This document shows, one piece after another, positions 1,035 through 21,513 of a stretch of DNA of 64,000 nt. The stretch is from Mobula hypostoma. Lineage: Eukaryota. Positions within the stretch are counted from its first letter, which is position 1. Each line of letters opens with the position of its first letter. The stretch spans positions 35,900,001 through 35,964,000 of the forward strand of contig NC_086108.1 of the NCBI RefSeq assembly GCF_963921235.1, in the 5' to 3' direction. The notes under the pieces are model-generated. The model had not been told where the DNA came from. It was given only the letters and a program-made list of their open reading frames with translations, and searched no databases. The position numbers and the translations under genes were made by a program.

Positions 1035-1263
1035 TGAAGCACCTTCAATTACTCCAAAAGACTGAGGTTTGGTAAAATACTGAAAGGCTTTTATTCGCTG
1101 TACAATACGACCTCCACAGTGAGTGTCTGCCCCCGGACTGAGGGGGAGGGGCAAGGCGAACACCTTTATACAGGACTCTGTGGGAGGAGCCACAGGGTCA
1201 GTCAGCAGAGGGGTGTGTCCAGACAGGTAACCGAGTTACAACATATATACATGGTTTACCACA
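1035..1263 (-). repeat. 3' LTR of the Gypsy element
   Basis: Direct repeat of 4449-4677, preceded on the minus strand by the PPT aaaaaaaggaggggtgaa. Confidence 0.97.
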
Positions 1264-1281
1264 TTCACCCCTCCTTTTTTT
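1264..1281 (-). promoter_or_regulatory. Polypurine tract (plus-strand primer) of the Gypsy element
   Basis: Minus strand reads aaaaaaaggaggggtgaa immediately before the 3' LTR TG. Confidence 0.85.
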
Positions 1282-1332: not shown

Positions 1333-4300
1333 TTACAGGTTAAGTCTATCAGGCGGTCGAGTCCGTCGCTGTGATCTACGTAGCACCGGCGGTGATTGCA
1401 CCGGCGATGGCGGTTGTGCTGGCTCCGGCCTGACTTCAGGTGCCAGCACGTTAGGCATCGGTAATCCCTCGTGCGTGTGCGTCGCGCCCGGTATGGGAGT
1501 GTCGTGTGGTGTCTGTATAGGGTTTGGGGTGCACGGTGTCTCGTAGGTACATACATTGGTGGGTACGGGGTCAATAGTCACCACGGAGTGTTCAGGGTAG
1601 GGGCCCGGAGCTCCTGCGGGCGCCAGGTCGCGGATGGAGACCGCGTCCTCGCACCCATCAGGTAAAACCACGTAGGCATACTGGGGGTTCGCATGAAGTA
1701 AGTGAATCCTCTTGACCATCGGGGAGTATTTATTGCTCCTCGCATGTTTCCGAAGCAGCACTGGCCCCGGGGACGTCAGCCAAGTTGGTAGGGTGAACCT
1801 TTTGCCGGCAAGATAGTGCCTCCAGTGCCTTATAGCTTCCACTGTGGCCTGGGCCTCTTTCTCTACCGCAGAGTGCCGAATTTCAGGGCCTTGAAGGGTA
1901 TGGGAGAAGAACGCCACTGGTCTTCCTGCCTGGTTGAGGGTAGCAGCCAGCGCAAAGTCGGAGGCGTCACTCCCTACTTGGAAGGGAATGGCCTCATCCA
2001 CCGCATCCATTGCTGCTTTGGCAATGTCCCCTTTTATGCGGTTGAAGGCCGCGTGGGCCTCGGCAGAGAGGGGGAATGTGGTGGACTTGACCAGGGGGCG
2101 GGCCTTGACTGCATAATTAGAGACCCATTGGGTGTAATATAAAAAGAAGCCCAGGCACCTTTTGAGGGCTCTGAGGGTGTTGGGAAGAGGGAGTTCCAAC
2201 AAGGGGTGCATACGGTCGGGGTCAGGGCCAATGACTCCATTCTCCACGACACACCCAAAGACAGCAAGTCGGGTGGTCCCAAATACACACTTGTCCTTGT
2301 TATAGGTGAGGTTGAAAGATTTGGCCGCTTGGAGAAATTTTTGGAGGTTGTTGTCGTGATCCTGCTGGTCGTGACCGCAGATGGTAATGTTATCCAGATA
2401 TGGGAACGTGGCCTTCAGTTGGCACTGGTCCATCATCTGGTCCATTGCCCTCTGGAAGACAGATACACCATTCGTGACACCAAAGGGGACGCGCAGGAAT
2501 TGTTAAAGCCGGCCGTCGGCCTCGAAGGCAGTGTAAGGGCGGTCCTCCCGACGGATGGGGAGCTGATGGTGAGCGGATTTTAGGTCTATGGTCGAGTACA
2601 CCTTGTACTGTGCTATCTGATTGACCATATCCGCGATGCGGGGTAGAGGGTACGCGTCGAGCTGTGTGAACCTATTGATGGTCTGGCTATAGTCCACGAC
2701 CATCCTATTCTTCTTCCCGTTCCGAACAACCACCACCTGGGCCCTCCAAGGACTTGTGCTTGCCTTAATGACCCCCTCCCTGAGCAGCCGCTGCACCTCC
2801 GACTTAATGAAAGCTCTGTCCCCCGCGCTGTACCTCCTGCTTTTAGTTGCCACAGGTTTACAGTCGGGGGTCAGGTTGGCGAACAGCGGTGGGGGAGGGA
2901 TCCTGAGGGTGGAGAGGTCGCAAGTGGTGTCAGTAGTGTGGCAGTTGGCATGATGTTGGGTGGGATGCGCAGGTCGGTGTGTGTGTGTGGTCAGTAGTGG
3001 GGTACGTGACATATCTCTACAAAACAGGGGATTTATGACAGTAATTGGCGGGAGGGGCCCATCATACTTCATTGTCACGCTCTTCAGGTGGCTCTGGAAG
3101 TCCAACCCCAACAGCACAGGGGCACACAGTTGAGGCAAGACCAGTAACTTAAAGTCCCAATATTCTGTGCCCTGCACCACTAGTGTCGCTACACAACCCC
3201 CCCGGATGTCTGTTGTATGCGACCTGGAGGCCATGGTGACCCTCCGACTTACCGGCCGTATCATGAGTCCACAATGCTGCACCGTGGCCGGGTGGATAAA
3301 ACTCTCCGTGCTGCCTGTGTCAAACAGGCAGTTTGTCCTGTGCCCCTCCACCAGGATGTCCATCACTGACCTTGTGAGCTGGTGGGGAGCGCTTTGGTCG
3401 AGGGTCACGGAAGCCAGGGTGGGGTCGCTGTCTTGGTCCGGCGCGGTGGGGTGGCCCGTGAGCACCCGTTGGTCGTAGGTGGTGGGAGGTGGCGCCGACC
3501 AAGATGGCCACGCCCATGTCTCGCACGTGGTGGTGGCGTGCAGGGAAGATGGCGGCCCCCATGTCTCGCACGTGGTGGTAGCGTGCAGGGAAGATGGCGG
3601 CCCCCATGTCTCGCACGTGGTGGCAGTGTGCAGGGAAGATGGCGACCCCCACGTCTCGCACGCGGCGCTGCTCGATCCCGCTTGCAGTTTTGACTTACAG
3701 ACCTTGGCGAAGTGGCCCTTCTTTCCGCAGCTGGAACAGGTAGCTTGTCGAGCCGCGCAGCGTTTCCGGGGGTGCTTCTCCAGTCTGCAGAAGTAGCACT
3801 TCGTGGACTCACGACTGGCTGCAGCCGAGGTCAATTCGCCGGCGGGTTGCGGGGACTGCGGCGCCCACGAGGCCATCGGGGGATCGCGTGCCTGGAGAAC
3901 CTCGGAGTTATGCAGAGTGGCCTCCAACGTATCAGCTAGCTCCATCGCCGAACTTAAGGTAAGATCGTTTTTTTCCAGCAGCCGCTGGCGCACGTACACT
4001 GACCTGGTCCCCGTGACGAAGGCGTCCCTCACTAGGAGTTCTGCATGCTGCGTCGCCGTCAGCTCCTGGCAATTGCAGGCCCGCACAAGTGTCTGTAGGG
4101 CCCGGACAAACTCAGCACTCGATTCCCCGGACCGTTGTTGCCGTGTCGCTAAACGGTGCTGAGCATAGACGCTGTTTATCGGCCACAGGTATTGTCTTTT
4201 GAGTGCGTTCATTGCGCCATCGTAGTTCGGCTGGTCTCTGATCAGCGAATAGACCCGTGGACTGACCCTGGAGAGTAGAACTCTGCACTTCGCTACGGGG

Positions 4301-4422
4301 TCGGTCGCTTTAATCTCCTCTAGATACGCTTCGAAGCAGGCCAGCCAGAGTTCGAAAGCGTTTCCAGCGTCAGGCATTTGCGGATTGAGGTCTAATTTGT
4401 CTGGTCTCAGAGCCTGTTCCAT
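1333..4422 (-). pseudogene. gag-pol polyprotein, disabled by one in-frame TAA (2503-2505) and loss of the integrase core
   Basis: ORFs 2503..4422 and 1333..2445 are in the same frame. Motifs: CCHC knuckles CYFCRLEKHPRKRC and CSSCGKKGHFAKVC; protease LFDTGS; RT (RMVVDY, STIDLKSAHHQ, PFG, YLDN); RNase H (SDASD, EKEAQA). No HHCC or DDE integrase motifs. Confidence 0.93.
3513..3662 (-). repeat. 45-bp coding tandem repeat (about 3.3 copies) between gag and protease
   Basis: Repeated peptide TCETWGPPSSLHATT in ORF 2503..4422. Confidence 0.9.
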
Positions 4423-4431
4423 GTTTTAAAA

Positions 4432-4447
4432 TGTACAGCGAATAAAA
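4432..4447 (-). promoter_or_regulatory. Non-tRNA primer-binding site complementary to the element's own LTR
   Basis: Minus strand TTTTATTCGCTGTACA begins 1 nt after the 5' LTR, has no TGG start, and is the exact reverse complement of LTR sequence TGTACAGCGAATAAAA (3' LTR, 1089-1104). Confidence 0.85.
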
Positions 4448-4448
4448 T

Positions 4449-4677
4449 TGAAGCACCTTCAATTACTCCAAAAGACTGAGGTTTGGTAAAATACTGAAAG
4501 GCTTTTATTTGCTGTAAAATACGACCTCCACAGTGAGTGTCTGCCCCCGGACTGAGGGGGAGGGGCAAGGCGAACACCTTTATACAGGACTCTGTGGGAG
4601 GAGCCACAGGGGCAGTCAGCAGAGGGGTGTGTCCAGACAGGTAACCGAGTTACACCATATATACATGGTTTACCACA
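4449..4677 (-). repeat. 5' LTR of the Gypsy element
   Basis: Direct repeat of 1035-1263 with 4 substitutions; TATAAA on the minus strand at 4579-4584; AATAAA near 4504-4509. Confidence 0.97.
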
Positions 4678-7499
4678 TCATCCTTGATGTATGGAAACAA
4701 CAGACAAGATACGTCTACCGTGTATCTGATGTCCTTATGTTCTGTGTTCTATATTCTATATTCTGTTGTAGCAACACATCTTCATGCATCCAAATAACTG
4801 CTCTTTACCCCAGAACTAAAGCAGTGGATGAAACCAGCAGCAAGTGGCCTTGTAGATATCCACAGAGGAGGCATTTACCACGATCAGGGTTAGCAAACCC
4901 ACAACTACTGGTCCCTTACGTTCTGACTGACAATGCACTGAGTTCAGGCCAGGAACAAATTCTGAGTGAAACACAATATTCGTACATGTTGACTAAGTCA
5001 TTGGACATGACATATAAGTGCAAAATTCTGGCAGAAATATTATTTCTGAGTTCTTTGCCACAGTGGGTTATTGACCCTGCTCTACCTTAACCATGACTGG
5101 CTTTAATACTGTACATCTGCAATACGCCATGTGAACCCATCCTATTTCCTATGGTATACCGTATCTGAAAAATGCAGGGAGTGCCGCAGTTAGGTGTTGA
5201 ATAGTACATTCTTTTGGATGCTTGCCAGTTATATTTAGTACGTGATGTTCAGTGAATATTAGAACTAGCACCCTTTCCATCTATCTGTCGCATTTTTTTG
5301 AATAAAGTAAGTTATTTTTGGCTTTTCTGAGTCATGTAGACTCTGATCAAGATCAAGTCATCTGTCAATATCTCTAAGCACGCAAACACTCTCACTGTTT
5401 TGGAGTTCAGCAGAACTAAGCCTCCCTAGCCAGTAGTTAAACTAGTTTAAAATGCTTTTCTTTTATTAAGTGCAATGGTGAACAATAGCCAGATCAGAAA
5501 TGCTGATCAAGTCAATTAGTTCCCAAAGAGAACTCTGATAGGCCAATCAGATGGTTCACTGCTACTCAGCGACAGAACACAAAAAAAATCATATGTACAA
5601 TTAAGAAACATTTAAAAATAGTAGAAATACTGGAGTCATGATGATCATGATGAAGTCTGCTGGAGAGAGACATTTATACACATGCTGCCTTCCATAATTC
5701 AGAGATTGAAGGATAAAATTGCAGGGTGACAAAACATGGCAGGAGCACTTGGAACTAGAAACTAATCCCTACCGGGAGAAAACAGCTTTATGTAGGAGCT
5801 AAATCAACAGTCAGAAAATCGTGTTTTCGTATTTAATTATTCTTAGAAATTTTGTTTTAACTAATTTGGCAAACTTTGTTTTCGCTTCCAAGCAAACTGC
5901 CCAGTTTCCATTACCGTTCTCTGATTTTTGTAAAAATTCCTCACCAAATATTTACAATACCTTTGTCATTCAGCTTCACCAGAAATGAGTGATGCACTCC
6001 CAGCTGTTATACCATACCACTCTCATCCTCTTCCCAACTGCCAGGGTATCTCCGCTGCAGAAGCATGGCAAGACGGTTCTGATTCTGAGCCACCACTTGG
6101 CCATTTTATCAATTCTCTAGTGGCAACTTTGTCAGATCACCAGCTATTGAAAAGACATATATACTCCCCAGTGTTACCTATGATTCACTTTCGAACACTT
6201 TTGCTTCTGAGGTACAAGGTTGTGGGTTCAAGTCCCCCTTCGGAGAAACAAACACAGACGTCCAAACTAATAGTCCAGTGATGGACAAGGGAGAACAGTG
6301 CTGTTGGAGAGTTAGTCTTTAGGCTGGCACATTAAACTGAGATTTGCTCAGGTGAATGGAAAATATTCTATGATAATTCTATCTGAAGAAGAGCAATAAA
6401 GCTCTCCTAGCAATTAAATGAGGGTACCTGTCCATTATTACATTACTGATATGGGAGTTAACTATAGCTGTGGGGAGCAGACTGTACTACTCGACAGTAA
6501 AATAATCTTTATACTACAGTCAGTAAAGCACTGTTGACAAGTTTTCTGGGATGACATCAGTGAAGCTACGGAAGTAAAAACCTTGCTTTTCTTTACAAAT
6601 GAACTTTGCGTTGAAAATATTTTATCAAACAACTTTCACAACAGGTCAGCTCCATTCAACCTCTCTACTCTTGCACTCCCACCAAAAGGGTTTGTAATCC
6701 CTAGGATTAATTTCCTTCAATCCCACTTCATTTAGTGTCCATTCACAATCGTCCTCTACTTGTTCAATTCAGTTTGTTCATGAGTCAGGCAAGTGTTCCT
6801 TCAAAGAAGTTCTCCCTGTCTGAGAAAAGATTGTAACTATGGGAATTGCTGTGTTCTGGCTATGATTGCCTTTGCATGGGATCCTTGGAAATGTCATTGT
6901 TGCTCGATCACTGCCAATTAGGTATAGGTTTGGAATCCGACTCTAGAGTCACATCAAAAGTAGAAAGGAAGCTGAAGCTCATGACAGCAGGAAGAAGCAA
7001 GCCCTCTCCACGGGATGGTAAAATGTCCTCAGGGCAGCAACTGAGGAAAGAAGTCCCAGTAATGGTGCCATGTTCAATCCAAACTGAAGTGAGTTTTTTT
7101 GATAAGGTACAGTCACTATGCATGCTCCGCCATTTCTGTTTCCATGATTTGGAGACCCTTTAATTTGGCAATACCATAAACAACTGACAAAAATATTAAA
7201 GATGAATGGACACATTTACTCAATATTAAAACTAGTGTATGGTTTTGCTAAATAAAAGTTTGGAACATTTATACCTTGACGGGTCATTGCTAAATATTTG
7301 ACTCTTGTTTTAATTTGTAATCTTTATAATTGTAATGATTAGCTTGGTAAGATGTAATCATTACATAAATCATGAATTCAGTGGTTGCCTTGGTTAGATG
7401 AAATATGCAACTAAAAATAACAGATGAAGTCTTTTCCTAAGGGGCTATTACCTGAAGAGTCTCATTAGGGACAAAACAAATCAAAATACTGCAGTTGTA

Positions 7500-18189: not shown

Positions 18190-21100
18190 ATAGAAACATA
18201 GAAACATAGAAAATAGGTGCAGGAGTAGGCCATTCGGCCCTTCGAGCCTGCACCGCCATTTATTATGATCATGGCTGATCATCCAACTCAGAACCCCGCC
18301 CCAGCCTTCTCTCCATACCCCCTGACCCCCGTAGCCACAAGGGCCATATCTAACTCCCTCTTAAATATAGGCAATGAACTGGCCTCAACTGTTTCCTGTG
18401 GCAGAGAATTCCACAGATTCACCACTCTCTGTGTGAAGAAGTTTTTCCTAATCTCGGTCCTAAAAGGCTTCCCCTCTATCCTCAAACTGTGGCCCCTCGT
18501 TCTGGACTTCCCTAACATTGTGAACAATCTTCCTGCATCTAGCCTGTCCAATCCCTTTAGGATCTTATACGTTTCAATCAGATCCCCCCCTCAATCTTCT
18601 AAATTCCAACGAGTACAAGCCCAGTTCATCCAGTCTTTCTTCATATGAAAGTCCTGCCATCCCAGGAATCAATCTGGTGAACCTTCTTTGTACTCCCTCT
18701 AAGGCAAGGATGTCTTTCCTCAGATTAGGGGACCAAAACTGCACACAATACTCCAGGTGTGGTCTCACCAAGGCCTTGTACAACTGCAGTAGTACATCCC
18801 TGCTCCTGTACTCGAATCCTCTCGCTATAAATGCCAGCATACCATTCGCCTTTTTCACCGCCTGCTGTACCTGCATGCCCACTTTCAATGACACCCAGGT
18901 CTCGTTGCACCTCCCCTTTTCCTAATCGGCCACCATTCAGATAATAATCTGTTTTCCTATTTTTGCCACCAAAGTGGATAACTTCACATTTATCCACATT
19001 AAATTGCATCTGCCATGAATTTGCCCACTCACCCAAACTATCCAAGTCACCCTTCATCCTCTTAGCATCCTCCTCACAGCTAACACTGCCGCCCAGCTTC
19101 GTGTCATCCGCAAACTTGGAGATGCTGCATTTAATTCCCTCATCCAAGTCATTAATATATATTGTAAACAACTGGGGTCCCAGCACTGAGCCTTGCGGTA
19201 CCCCACTAGTCACTGCCTGCCATTCTGAAAAGGTCCCGTTTATTCCCACTCTTTGCTTCCTGTCTGCTAACCAATTCTCCACCCACACCAATACCTTACC
19301 CCCAATACCGTGCGCTTTAAGTTTGCACACTAATCTCCTGTGTGGGACCTTGTCAAAAGCCTTTTGAAAATCCAAATATACCACATCCACTGGTTCTCCC
19401 CTATCCACTCTACTAGTTACATCCTCAAAAAATTCTATGAGATTCGTCAGACATGATTTTCCTTTCACAAATCCATGCTGACTTCGTCCGATCATTTCAC
19501 CGCTTTCCAAATGTGCTGTTATCACATCCTTGATAACTGACTCCAGCTGTTTCCCCACCACCGACGTTAGGCTAACCGGTCTATAATTCCCCAGTTTCTC
19601 TCTCCCTCCTTTTTTAAAAAGTGGAGCTACATTAGCCACCCTCCAATCCTCAGGAACTAGTCCAGAATCTAACGAGTTTTGAAAAATTATCACTAATGCA
19701 TCCACTATTTCTTGGGCTACTTCCTTAAGCACTCTAGGATGCAGACCATCTGGCCCTGGGGATTTATCTGCCTTCAATCCCTTCAATTTACCTAACACCA
19801 CTTCCCTACTAACATGTATTTCGCTCAGTTCCTCCATCTCACTGGACCCTCTGTCCCCTACTATTTCTGGAAGATTATTTATGTCCTCCTTAATGAAGAC
19901 AGAACCAAAGTAATTATTCAATTGGTCTGCCATGTCCTTGCTCCCCATAATCAATTCACCTGTTTCTGTCTGCAGGGGACCTACATTTGTCTTTACCAGT
20001 CTTTTCCTTTTTACATATCTATAAAAGCTTTTACAGTCCGTTTTTATGTTCCCTGCCAGTTTTCTCTCATAATCTTTTTTCCCCTTCCTAATTAAGCCCT
20101 TTGTCCTCCTCTGCTGAACTCTGAATTTCTCCCAGTCCTCAGGTGAGCCACTTTCTCTGGCTAATTTGTATGCTTCTTCTTTGGAATTGATACTATCCCT
20201 AATTTCTCGTCAGCCACGGGTGCACTACCTTCCTTGATTTATTCTTTTGCCAAACTGGGATGAACAATTGTTGTAGTTCATCCATGCAACCTTTAAATGC
20301 TTGCCATTGCATATCCACCGTCAATCCTTTAAGTGTCATTTGCCAGTCTATCTTAGCTAATTCACGTCTCATACCTTCAAAGTTACCCCTCTTTAAGTTC
20401 AGAAACTTTGTTTCTGAATTAACTATGTCACTCTCCATCTTAATGAAGAATTCCACCATATTATGGTCACTCTTACCCAAGGGGCCTCTCACGACAAGAT
20501 CGCTAATTAACCCTTCCTCATTGCTCAAAACCCAGTCCAGAATAGCCTGCTCTCTAGTTGGTTCCTCGACATGTTGGTTTAAAAAACCATCCCGCATACA
20601 TTCCAAGAAATCCTCTTCCTCAGCACCTTTATCAATTTGGTTCACCCAATCTACATGTAGATTGAAGTCACCCATTATAACTGCTGTTCCTTTATTGCAC
20701 ACATTTCTAATTTCCTGTTTAATACCATCTCCGACCTCACTACTACTGTTAGGTGGCCTGTACACAACTCCCACCAGCGTCTTCTGCCCCTTAGTGTTAC
20801 GCAGCTCTACCCATATCGACTCCACATCTTCCCGGCTTATGTCCTTCCTTTCTGTTGCGTTAATCTCTTCTTTAACCAGCAACACCACCCCACCTCCCCT
20901 TCCTTCATGTCTATCCCTCCTGAATATTGAATATCCCTGAACGTTGAGCTCCCATCCCTGGTCACCCTGGAGCCATGTCTCTGTGATCCCAACTATATCA
21001 TAATCATTAATAACAATCTGCACTTTCAATTCATCCACCTTATTACGAATGCTCCTTGCATTGACACACAAAGCCTTCAGGCGCTCTTTTACAATTCTCT

Positions 21101-21513
21101 TAGCCCTTATACAATTATGTTGAAAAGTGGCCCTTTTAATGTCACTTTTACTTTTCTCCTTAGTACTTTTTGCTTCTCCCCTCACTTTACACCCCTCTGT
21201 CTCTCTGCACTGGTTCCCATCCCCCTGTTGTGAACTAACCTCCTCACGCCTAGCCTCTTTAATTTGGTTCCCACCCCCCAACCATTCTAGTTTAAAGTCA
21301 CCTCAGTAGCTCCCGCTAATCTCCCTGCTAGGATATTGGTCCCCCTAGGATTCAAGTGTAACCCGTCCTTTTTGTACAGGTCACGCCTGCGCCAAAAGAG
21401 GTCCCAATGATCCAAAAACTTGAATCCCTGCCCCCTGCTCCAATCCCTCAGCCACGCATTTATCCTCCACCTCATCGCATTCCTACTCTCACTATCGCGT
21501 GGCACAGGCAGTA
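18190..21513 (-). mobile_element. Young 5'-truncated CR1 LINE: ORF1 esterase C-terminus plus nearly full ORF2 (APE + RT) with frameshifts
   Basis: 21287..21505 (DGLHLN); 20199..21281 (CVNARS, ITETWL, GDFN, SDH); 18725..19954 (KSPGPDG, GVPQGSVLGP, KFADDTK); 18288..18894 C-terminal pieces; 3' tail (TTTCTATG)n at 18190-18212. Confidence 0.96.

Follow-up and report, generated by a model that had tools for sequence, protein, structure and literature searches.

The 64,000-nt stretch of Mobula hypostoma DNA analyzed here (the window) carries on its minus strand a 3.64-kb element that, judged by its organization, is a decayed copy of a Ty3/Gypsy LTR retrotransposon. Two 229-nt LTRs, both bounded by TG..CA and differing from each other at four positions, lie at 4449..4677 (5′ LTR) and 1035..1263 (3′ LTR), flanked by the target-site duplication GATGA (4678..4682, with its other copy at 1034-1030), and a polypurine tract at 1264..1281, directly before the 3′ LTR, provides an ordinary plus-strand primer. 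These features are those expected of the Ty3/Gypsy superfamily, as is the domain order PR-RT-RNase H-IN, which is present when the window frame is read together with longer copies; the nearest solved relative of the element's RT is that of Ty3 (E 1.6e-18). The frame at 1333..4422 runs from gag through protease and RT into RNase H and a remnant of IN, so that the coding capacity of this copy extends over Gag, protease, and RT and ends within RNase H. Its decay is seen in a stop codon inside RT (2505-2503) and in an internal deletion of ~860 nt near 1790, with which the end of RNase H and most of IN are gone. The linker between gag and protease (3501-3665) is made up of three to four tandem 45-nt repeats, whose number varies among copies. 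Elsewhere in the window, ordinary non-LTR endonuclease and reverse-transcriptase frames, which we take to be CR1-like, occupy 18725-21302 and 27-816.

At the 5′ end of the element, a single A (4448) separates the CA of the LTR from the primer-binding-site (PBS) position (16 nt, 4432..4447, read from 4447 to 4432), and the gag ATG follows 25 nt past the PBS start, a closeness shared by other families. The PBS is the exact complement of positions 160 to 175 of the LTR, as the preliminary description had noticed: all 16 bases match in the 3′ LTR copy of this segment (1089..1104) and 14 of 16 match in the 5′ LTR copy (4503..4518), where one of the two mismatches falls at a CpG. Among 3,000 shuffled leaders, none had an LTR complement longer than 12 nt. 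Folding of 4420-4560 recovered the ~87-nt hairpin that had been proposed, at −37.1 kcal/mol (z = −2.73, with 1 of 200 shuffles equally good) and with both U5 stems included. In this predicted fold, a second helix begins at the first base past the duplex, its 5′ arm (GCCT...) at 4493..4502 and its 3′ arm in U5 at 4455..4463. The paired segment holds the LTR's only AATAAA poly(A)-type hexamer (4509-4504 in the 5′ LTR), on which the preliminary description is silent. The distance to the segment from the end of the TATAAA at 4579..4584 measures 60 nt, in line with the earlier estimate. The corresponding AATAAA of the 3′ LTR segment (1095-1090) has no PBS downstream as a pairing partner.

The family is high-copy in the M. 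hypostoma assembly as far as sequence searches can tell, with 1,578 places found for the LTR-leader and 11,481 for the RT piece, both being first-look candidates and not copy numbers. Longer copies contain a single gag-PR-RT-RH-IN frame. Among 80 copies fetched by RT similarity, 67 cover the PBS-LTR region, and 63 of these keep at least 14 of the 16 Watson-Crick pairs. The copies form two subfamilies, A and B, whose LTRs are ~86% identical and in which both sides of the duplex have changed. Over 170 copies, pair 11 is A-T in 135, T-A in 30, and discordant in 5 (165 of 170 concordant), and pair 15 is G-C in 117, T-A in 32, G-T in 3, and mismatched in 18. The swap of pairs within this genome is probably the product of one or a few inherited events. 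At pair 16, 33 of the RT-selected copies have T-A and 31 a T-G wobble; repeated correction from the primer was considered as the cause of this A/G difference and rejected, since the variants are linked to gag variants and thus mark subfamilies.

Some further observations concern the copies themselves. The LTR of subfamily B has two AATAAA hexamers (seen in L053, L054, L055, L061, and L063). One of them takes the place of the TATAAA of subfamily A, ~82 nt upstream of the duplex end, and the PBS pairs with the downstream one only. One locus (L013, G000:C76:39358719-39362016) contains, within 3.3 kb, an LTR-plus-PBS unit and another one in opposite orientation to it, the second being without the usual gag start behind it. 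When the genome was searched by pattern for an additional family, 35 matches were returned, compared with 18 for a reversed control, and these look like chance; a divergent Gag query returned only matches of 42 to 48% identity, and the 25 loci examined were only more copies of the A-B series.

To place the window copy in a broader perspective, we turn to the wider clade. A metagenome scan found at least 541 relatives among at least 645 stretches, of which the best 80 of at least 541 were taken; no relatives in viral contigs were found by the scans. A Gag N-terminal profile matched in 47 of these best 80, and nine were set aside (four in which the match was not a true start, three in which it began late in the profile, and two at a contig end), leaving 38 that have a genuine gag start and sequence upstream of it. 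In 33 of these 38 relatives, PBS and LTR form at least 11 of 13 Watson-Crick pairs, compared with 6 to 9 of 13 in the seven scorable set-aside loci without a true 5′ end, which were put through the same search. The five relatives below this level are L103 (9), L111 (8), L131 (8, with an insertion inside the PBS), L136 (10), and L137 (10). L103 is a clade member by its RT and has a gag start with no clear duplex, which may reflect decay or a different priming site.

Covariation was then assessed over 25 families, that is, 23 representatives with distinct duplexes and the two ray subfamilies; L103 was left out, as were L111 and L131, which are damaged members of groups already represented. Over pairs 6 to 13, the PBS of a family forms on average 7.76 of 8 pairs with its own LTR and 3.96 with the LTR of another family, and only 22 of 600 cross-family pairings reach 7 of 8. 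In a permutation over these families, which are related and hence not independent events, the observed 194 pairs compare with 102.9 ± 6.6, and none of 100,000 permutations was as high. Over pairs 1 to 13 (n = 325), there are 310 Watson-Crick pairs, 4 G-U pairs, and 11 mismatches; each of pairs 5 to 12 occurs in two to four Watson-Crick forms across families, and pairs 12 to 16 also covary. Pair 16 is still formed in 19 of 25 families, whereas pair 17 is formed in only 5. Compensatory change, within the genome and across families alike, therefore bears out the proposed complementarity, and we regard the PBS-LTR pairing as confirmed, at the level of comparative sequence analysis, as a real, strongly conserved, and covarying feature.

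The surroundings of the duplex are partly shared. The loop between the LTR segment and the PBS measures 31 to 68 nt across families, and the mean pairing probability of the predicted 5′ hairpin is at least 0.7 in 22 of 25. At the duplex end, a consensus reads TTYAGY at −14 to −9 and WAAA at the end, followed by RCCT. A helix of at least 4 bp starting from the first base past the duplex is found in 20 of 25 families (shuffles: mean 8.1, maximum 15). The U5 self-pairing of the preliminary description thus holds for the clade as far as this short stem is concerned, whereas the long U5 stem is specific to the family. A canonical hexamer, AATAAA or ATTAAA, closes the duplex in 12 of 25 families, and most of the remaining ones have a near variant there; in L090 and L095, the canonical hexamer lies in U5, outside the duplex.

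The same covariation bears on whether a host RNA, be it a tRNA half or another small RNA, primes these elements with the LTR match being incidental. Because 25 families have different PBS sequences and each matches its own LTR, we consider a host primer highly improbable. As had been observed for the window copy, the PBS lacks the UGG start typical of a site for a tRNA, and none of the 25 families has TGG within 5 nt of the LTR end. The tRNA comparison, whose restriction to Lys and Cys (65 genes) leaves a host primer some room, gave a longest complement of 4 nt for the window PBS and of at most 7 nt in the 25 families. A search of 4300-4700 returned no Rfam match at E up to 1, and hence no known ribozyme or small RNA in that interval.

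Other Gypsy elements of the same genome serve as a comparison. A family with LTRs of ~610 nt and a GGGGGC-type primer site, presumably of the tRNA-Pro type, was taken as a negative control (eight loci: L183-L186, L191, L193, L194, and L199), and its LTR complement is only 5 to 8 nt long. In sushi-like chromoviruses (L169-L174 and L177), a complement of 10 to 11 nt is present in five of seven loci; it lies far upstream in the LTR, 172 to 230 nt from the LTR end, contains an initiator-like CCAGTT, and is without AATAAA. A further set of elements (L187-L190, L195-L197, L200, and L202) has the integrase upstream of RT, an order that we assume to be Gmr1-like.

In LTR elements, the primer of minus-strand synthesis anneals directly beside the 5′ LTR. 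Since the sequence found there in this clade is a family-specific complement of the LTR, we infer self-priming: the window element belongs to a high-copy family within an animal-wide Gypsy clade without a chromodomain, whose PBS pairs with its own LTR, and which quite likely uses its own RNA to prime minus-strand synthesis, once this RNA has been cut, as predicted, just past the last paired A. The 5′ end of the RNA would fold so that the R segment ending in WAAA (here the putative self-primer segment at 4503..4518) pairs with the PBS, and RT-RNase H would then, by analogy with Tf1, cut where the two helices meet, at WAAA|RCCT, which in the window copy places the predicted cut between 4503 and 4502. 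The freed 3′ end would be extended across the unpaired LTR end and U5, giving a short strong-stop DNA of 31 to 68 nt across families (55 nt here), which could jump to the 3′ end of the RNA via the stretch that separates the hexamer from the poly(A) site. A primer for such a PBS would have to end in a family-specific sequence followed by WAAA, and the sole evident source is the R region of the element. The small number of G-U pairs is also more in keeping with a primer from which the PBS is recopied than with a hairpin of purely structural function.

A helix that ends on a poly(A)-type hexamer could alternatively act only to hide the poly(A) signal of the 5′ LTR and so avert premature termination, with something else priming. 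Such a role would agree with the AATAAA or ATTAAA at the duplex end in nearly half of the families, with the near variants in most others, and with a PBS partner that is present at the 5′ end only. It has a known counterpart in the HIV-1 leader, where a poly(A)-signal hairpin covers the AAUAAA of the 5′ repeat, both of its arms lie in R/U5, and priming is by tRNA-Lys3; the helix over the hexamer is common to both, while in the present clade the second arm is the PBS, found only at the 5′ end. Masking as the only function would nevertheless leave no primer site beside the LTR, does not account for the constant spacing of one base or for the scarcity of G-U pairs, and is hard to reconcile with the 13 of 25 families that have no canonical hexamer in the duplex, or with the two that carry one outside it in U5. 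We therefore judge it to be distinctly unlikely as the whole explanation. As a side role next to self-priming, it is likely: in about half of the families, including this one, the helix would also cover the canonical hexamer of the 5′ LTR and leave that of the 3′ LTR free.

If the elements prime themselves, the length of the primer depends on where transcription starts, and the data point to two candidate sites. Of 137 copies of subfamily A, 117 have TATAAA at 82 nt and 128 have TCAGT at 51 nt upstream of the duplex end; in the window, this initiator-like TCAGT (4551..4555) is 31 nt below the TATA box and forms an alternative candidate start. By its sequence, this spacing favors a start near 4553, which would make the primer internal, a possibility raised in the preliminary description. 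Subfamily B keeps TATAAA in 1 of 33 copies and mostly has AATAAA there, and the metagenome relatives (best 80 of at least 541) have no common TATA. The other candidate start is the AGC at 4511..4513, at −11 to −9 from the duplex end, where an AGY occurs in 18 of 25 families (background, 0.025 per position). This motif, which resembles the initiator consensus, makes −11 a candidate start that would give an 11-nt primer as in Tf1. Against a start at −11 are the covariation of pairs 12 to 16 and the T that subfamily B has at this position.

Both the AGY at −11 and the covariation beyond it would be explained if the PBS paired instead with the 3′ LTR copy, which always includes −16 to −12, and if the 3′ end of the element's own or a co-packaged RNA, trimmed to the hexamer, acted as the primer. 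The end of the duplex at a poly(A)-type hexamer would suit this arrangement, as would the perfect match of the 3′ LTR here, even though the latter is most simply explained by decay of the 5′ LTR after insertion. However, the local 5′ hairpin is predicted to form readily in most families and would outcompete a distant partner, and we found no precedent for such priming in the literature consulted, so that we deem a primer from the 3′ copy unlikely.

For self-priming from the 5′ LTR, copies of mosaic structure offer a further hint about primer length. In copies whose LTR segment is of the A type but whose U5 and gag are mostly of the B type (such as L061, L069, L072, L074, L076, L080, L049, and L317, with L313 as an exception), the PBS base of pair 11 follows the LTR and that of pair 15 follows its linked neighbors. 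This pattern fits recopying of the PBS from a primer of 11 to 14 nt, but it would also result if a single lineage had evolved step by step under selection that was weaker at the outer pairs. A short primer, of 11 to ~16 nt, is most likely. Assembled contigs from eight RNA runs were uninformative, with no start site, poly(A) tail, or cut visible in them.

The position of the clade within Gypsy bears on how this priming may have arisen. The IN region of the window copy itself is too deleted to judge whether it once had a chromodomain, of which the preliminary description had seen no sign; scans of three longer genomic copies and of 12 relatives found neither a Chromo nor an SH3_Tf2-1 domain, and the sushi-like comparator L174 of the same genome carries both. 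The YLDN motif in RT that had also been pointed out is indeed common in the clade, but it is not diagnostic, as several members have YLDD. In the segments covering RT and RNase H, the element is 25 to 36% identical to sushi-like elements of the same genome and 39 to 64% identical to the metagenome relatives (best 80 of at least 541). An RT tree of 43 rows, rooted at its midpoint, calculated with a long-branch warning, and including same-genome sushi-like elements but no named reference elements, united all 29 clade rows at 100/100, with the 5 sushi-like rows and the 9 rows from two further Gypsy groups falling outside; L151, L169, and L170 had no usable RT piece. Within the scope of this tree without named references, the clade is not a member of Tf1/sushi, and the separation expected from the preliminary description is thereby upheld.

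Among named proteins, the closest are from Mobula hypostoma (94%), Hypanus sabinus, Scyliorhinus canicula, and Narcine bancroftii, followed by matches in cnidarians, Trichuris, and a damselfly, and then in Clonorchis, Trichinella, Spirometra, a spider, a butterfly, and a sea slug. Going by these protein matches, the clade is animal-wide, spanning rays and sharks, cnidarians, flatworms, nematodes, arthropods, and a mollusc. We take the Cigr-1 and Mag-related animal Gypsy clades as a lead for its name. Like Cigr-1 and Mag, the element is compact, with a single frame in ~4.4 kb, short LTRs, and a double zinc knuckle in Gag. Cigr-1 has been described as a clade found in Ciona and molluscs, in a paper whose main text mentions neither a PBS nor a primer (PMC6238403).

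The best-understood precedent is Tf1, in which the RNA's first 11 bases pair with the PBS and cleavage by RNase H falls between bases 11 and 12 (PMC7175516; PMC4600332). An LTR-complementary PBS beside the 5′ LTR is likewise found in Tf1/Tf2 of Schizosaccharomyces pombe, Tj1 of S. japonicus, and the Tf1/sushi chromoviruses, and self-priming in Tf1/sushi is described as including the plant Tcn1 clade. As in Tf1, a U5 helix flanks the duplex in the present clade, and a start at AGY would again give 11 nt. In contrast to Tf1/sushi, the clade is without chromodomain and SH3_Tf2-1, its RT stands apart in the tree, and its LTR segment, with a poly(A)-type hexamer at its end, is 31 to 68 nt away from the PBS. 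The RNA of Tf1 has been proposed to adopt a three-duplex "pretzel" (bioRxiv 10.1101/2022.12.06.519325). This structure is unsupported for the present clade, where the two PBS-adjacent duplexes are near shuffle level (6.04 compared to 5.53, and 4.76 compared to 4.40) and a different second helix is enriched. By all the sequence tests that we ran, the clade would nonetheless resemble Tf1 in its self-priming.

Predictions of self-priming extend beyond Tf1/sushi. For the Ty1/copia lineages TAR, Houba, and Osr-1, self-priming has been predicted from an LTR complement of at least 10 bp that starts 0 to 5 bp past the 5′ LTR, and the copia and Tcn1 predictions are taken to show that self-priming had more than one origin (PMC6317226). 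The present clade has a complement of this length and position; TAR, Houba, and Osr-1 belong to the copia superfamily and the Tcn1 clade to the chromoviruses, in plants, whereas here it is an animal Gypsy clade without a chromodomain. A different form of self-priming has been suggested for Skipper of Dictyostelium (PMC5006619), and our comparison also drew on text from PMC3601003, PMC11042837, PMC5341516, PMC5443660, and PMC5445492. No account of self-priming in an animal Gypsy clade without a chromodomain was found in the literature searched, which lies outside subscription journals and Repbase entries. To our knowledge, self-priming is proven only for the fission-yeast Tf1, while for the related chromoviruses and for a small number of copia lineages in plants it is a prediction.

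We speculate, as a tentative extension that we hold to be possible but not probable, that self-priming arose independently of Tf1/sushi in this animal-wide clade, and that one helix would both hide the 5′ poly(A) signal and, once cut behind the hexamer, serve as the primer; the homology available for the first strand transfer would then be set by how far the poly(A) site lies from the hexamer. The WAAA|RCCT junction offers an exact predicted cut site within a leader of less than 100 nt. Annotation tools that look for a tRNA site should miss or down-score elements of this kind, and self-primed elements should escape silencing by tRNA 3′ fragments. If the proposed priming is true, a large clade of animal retrotransposons without a chromodomain would represent another origin of tRNA-free priming.
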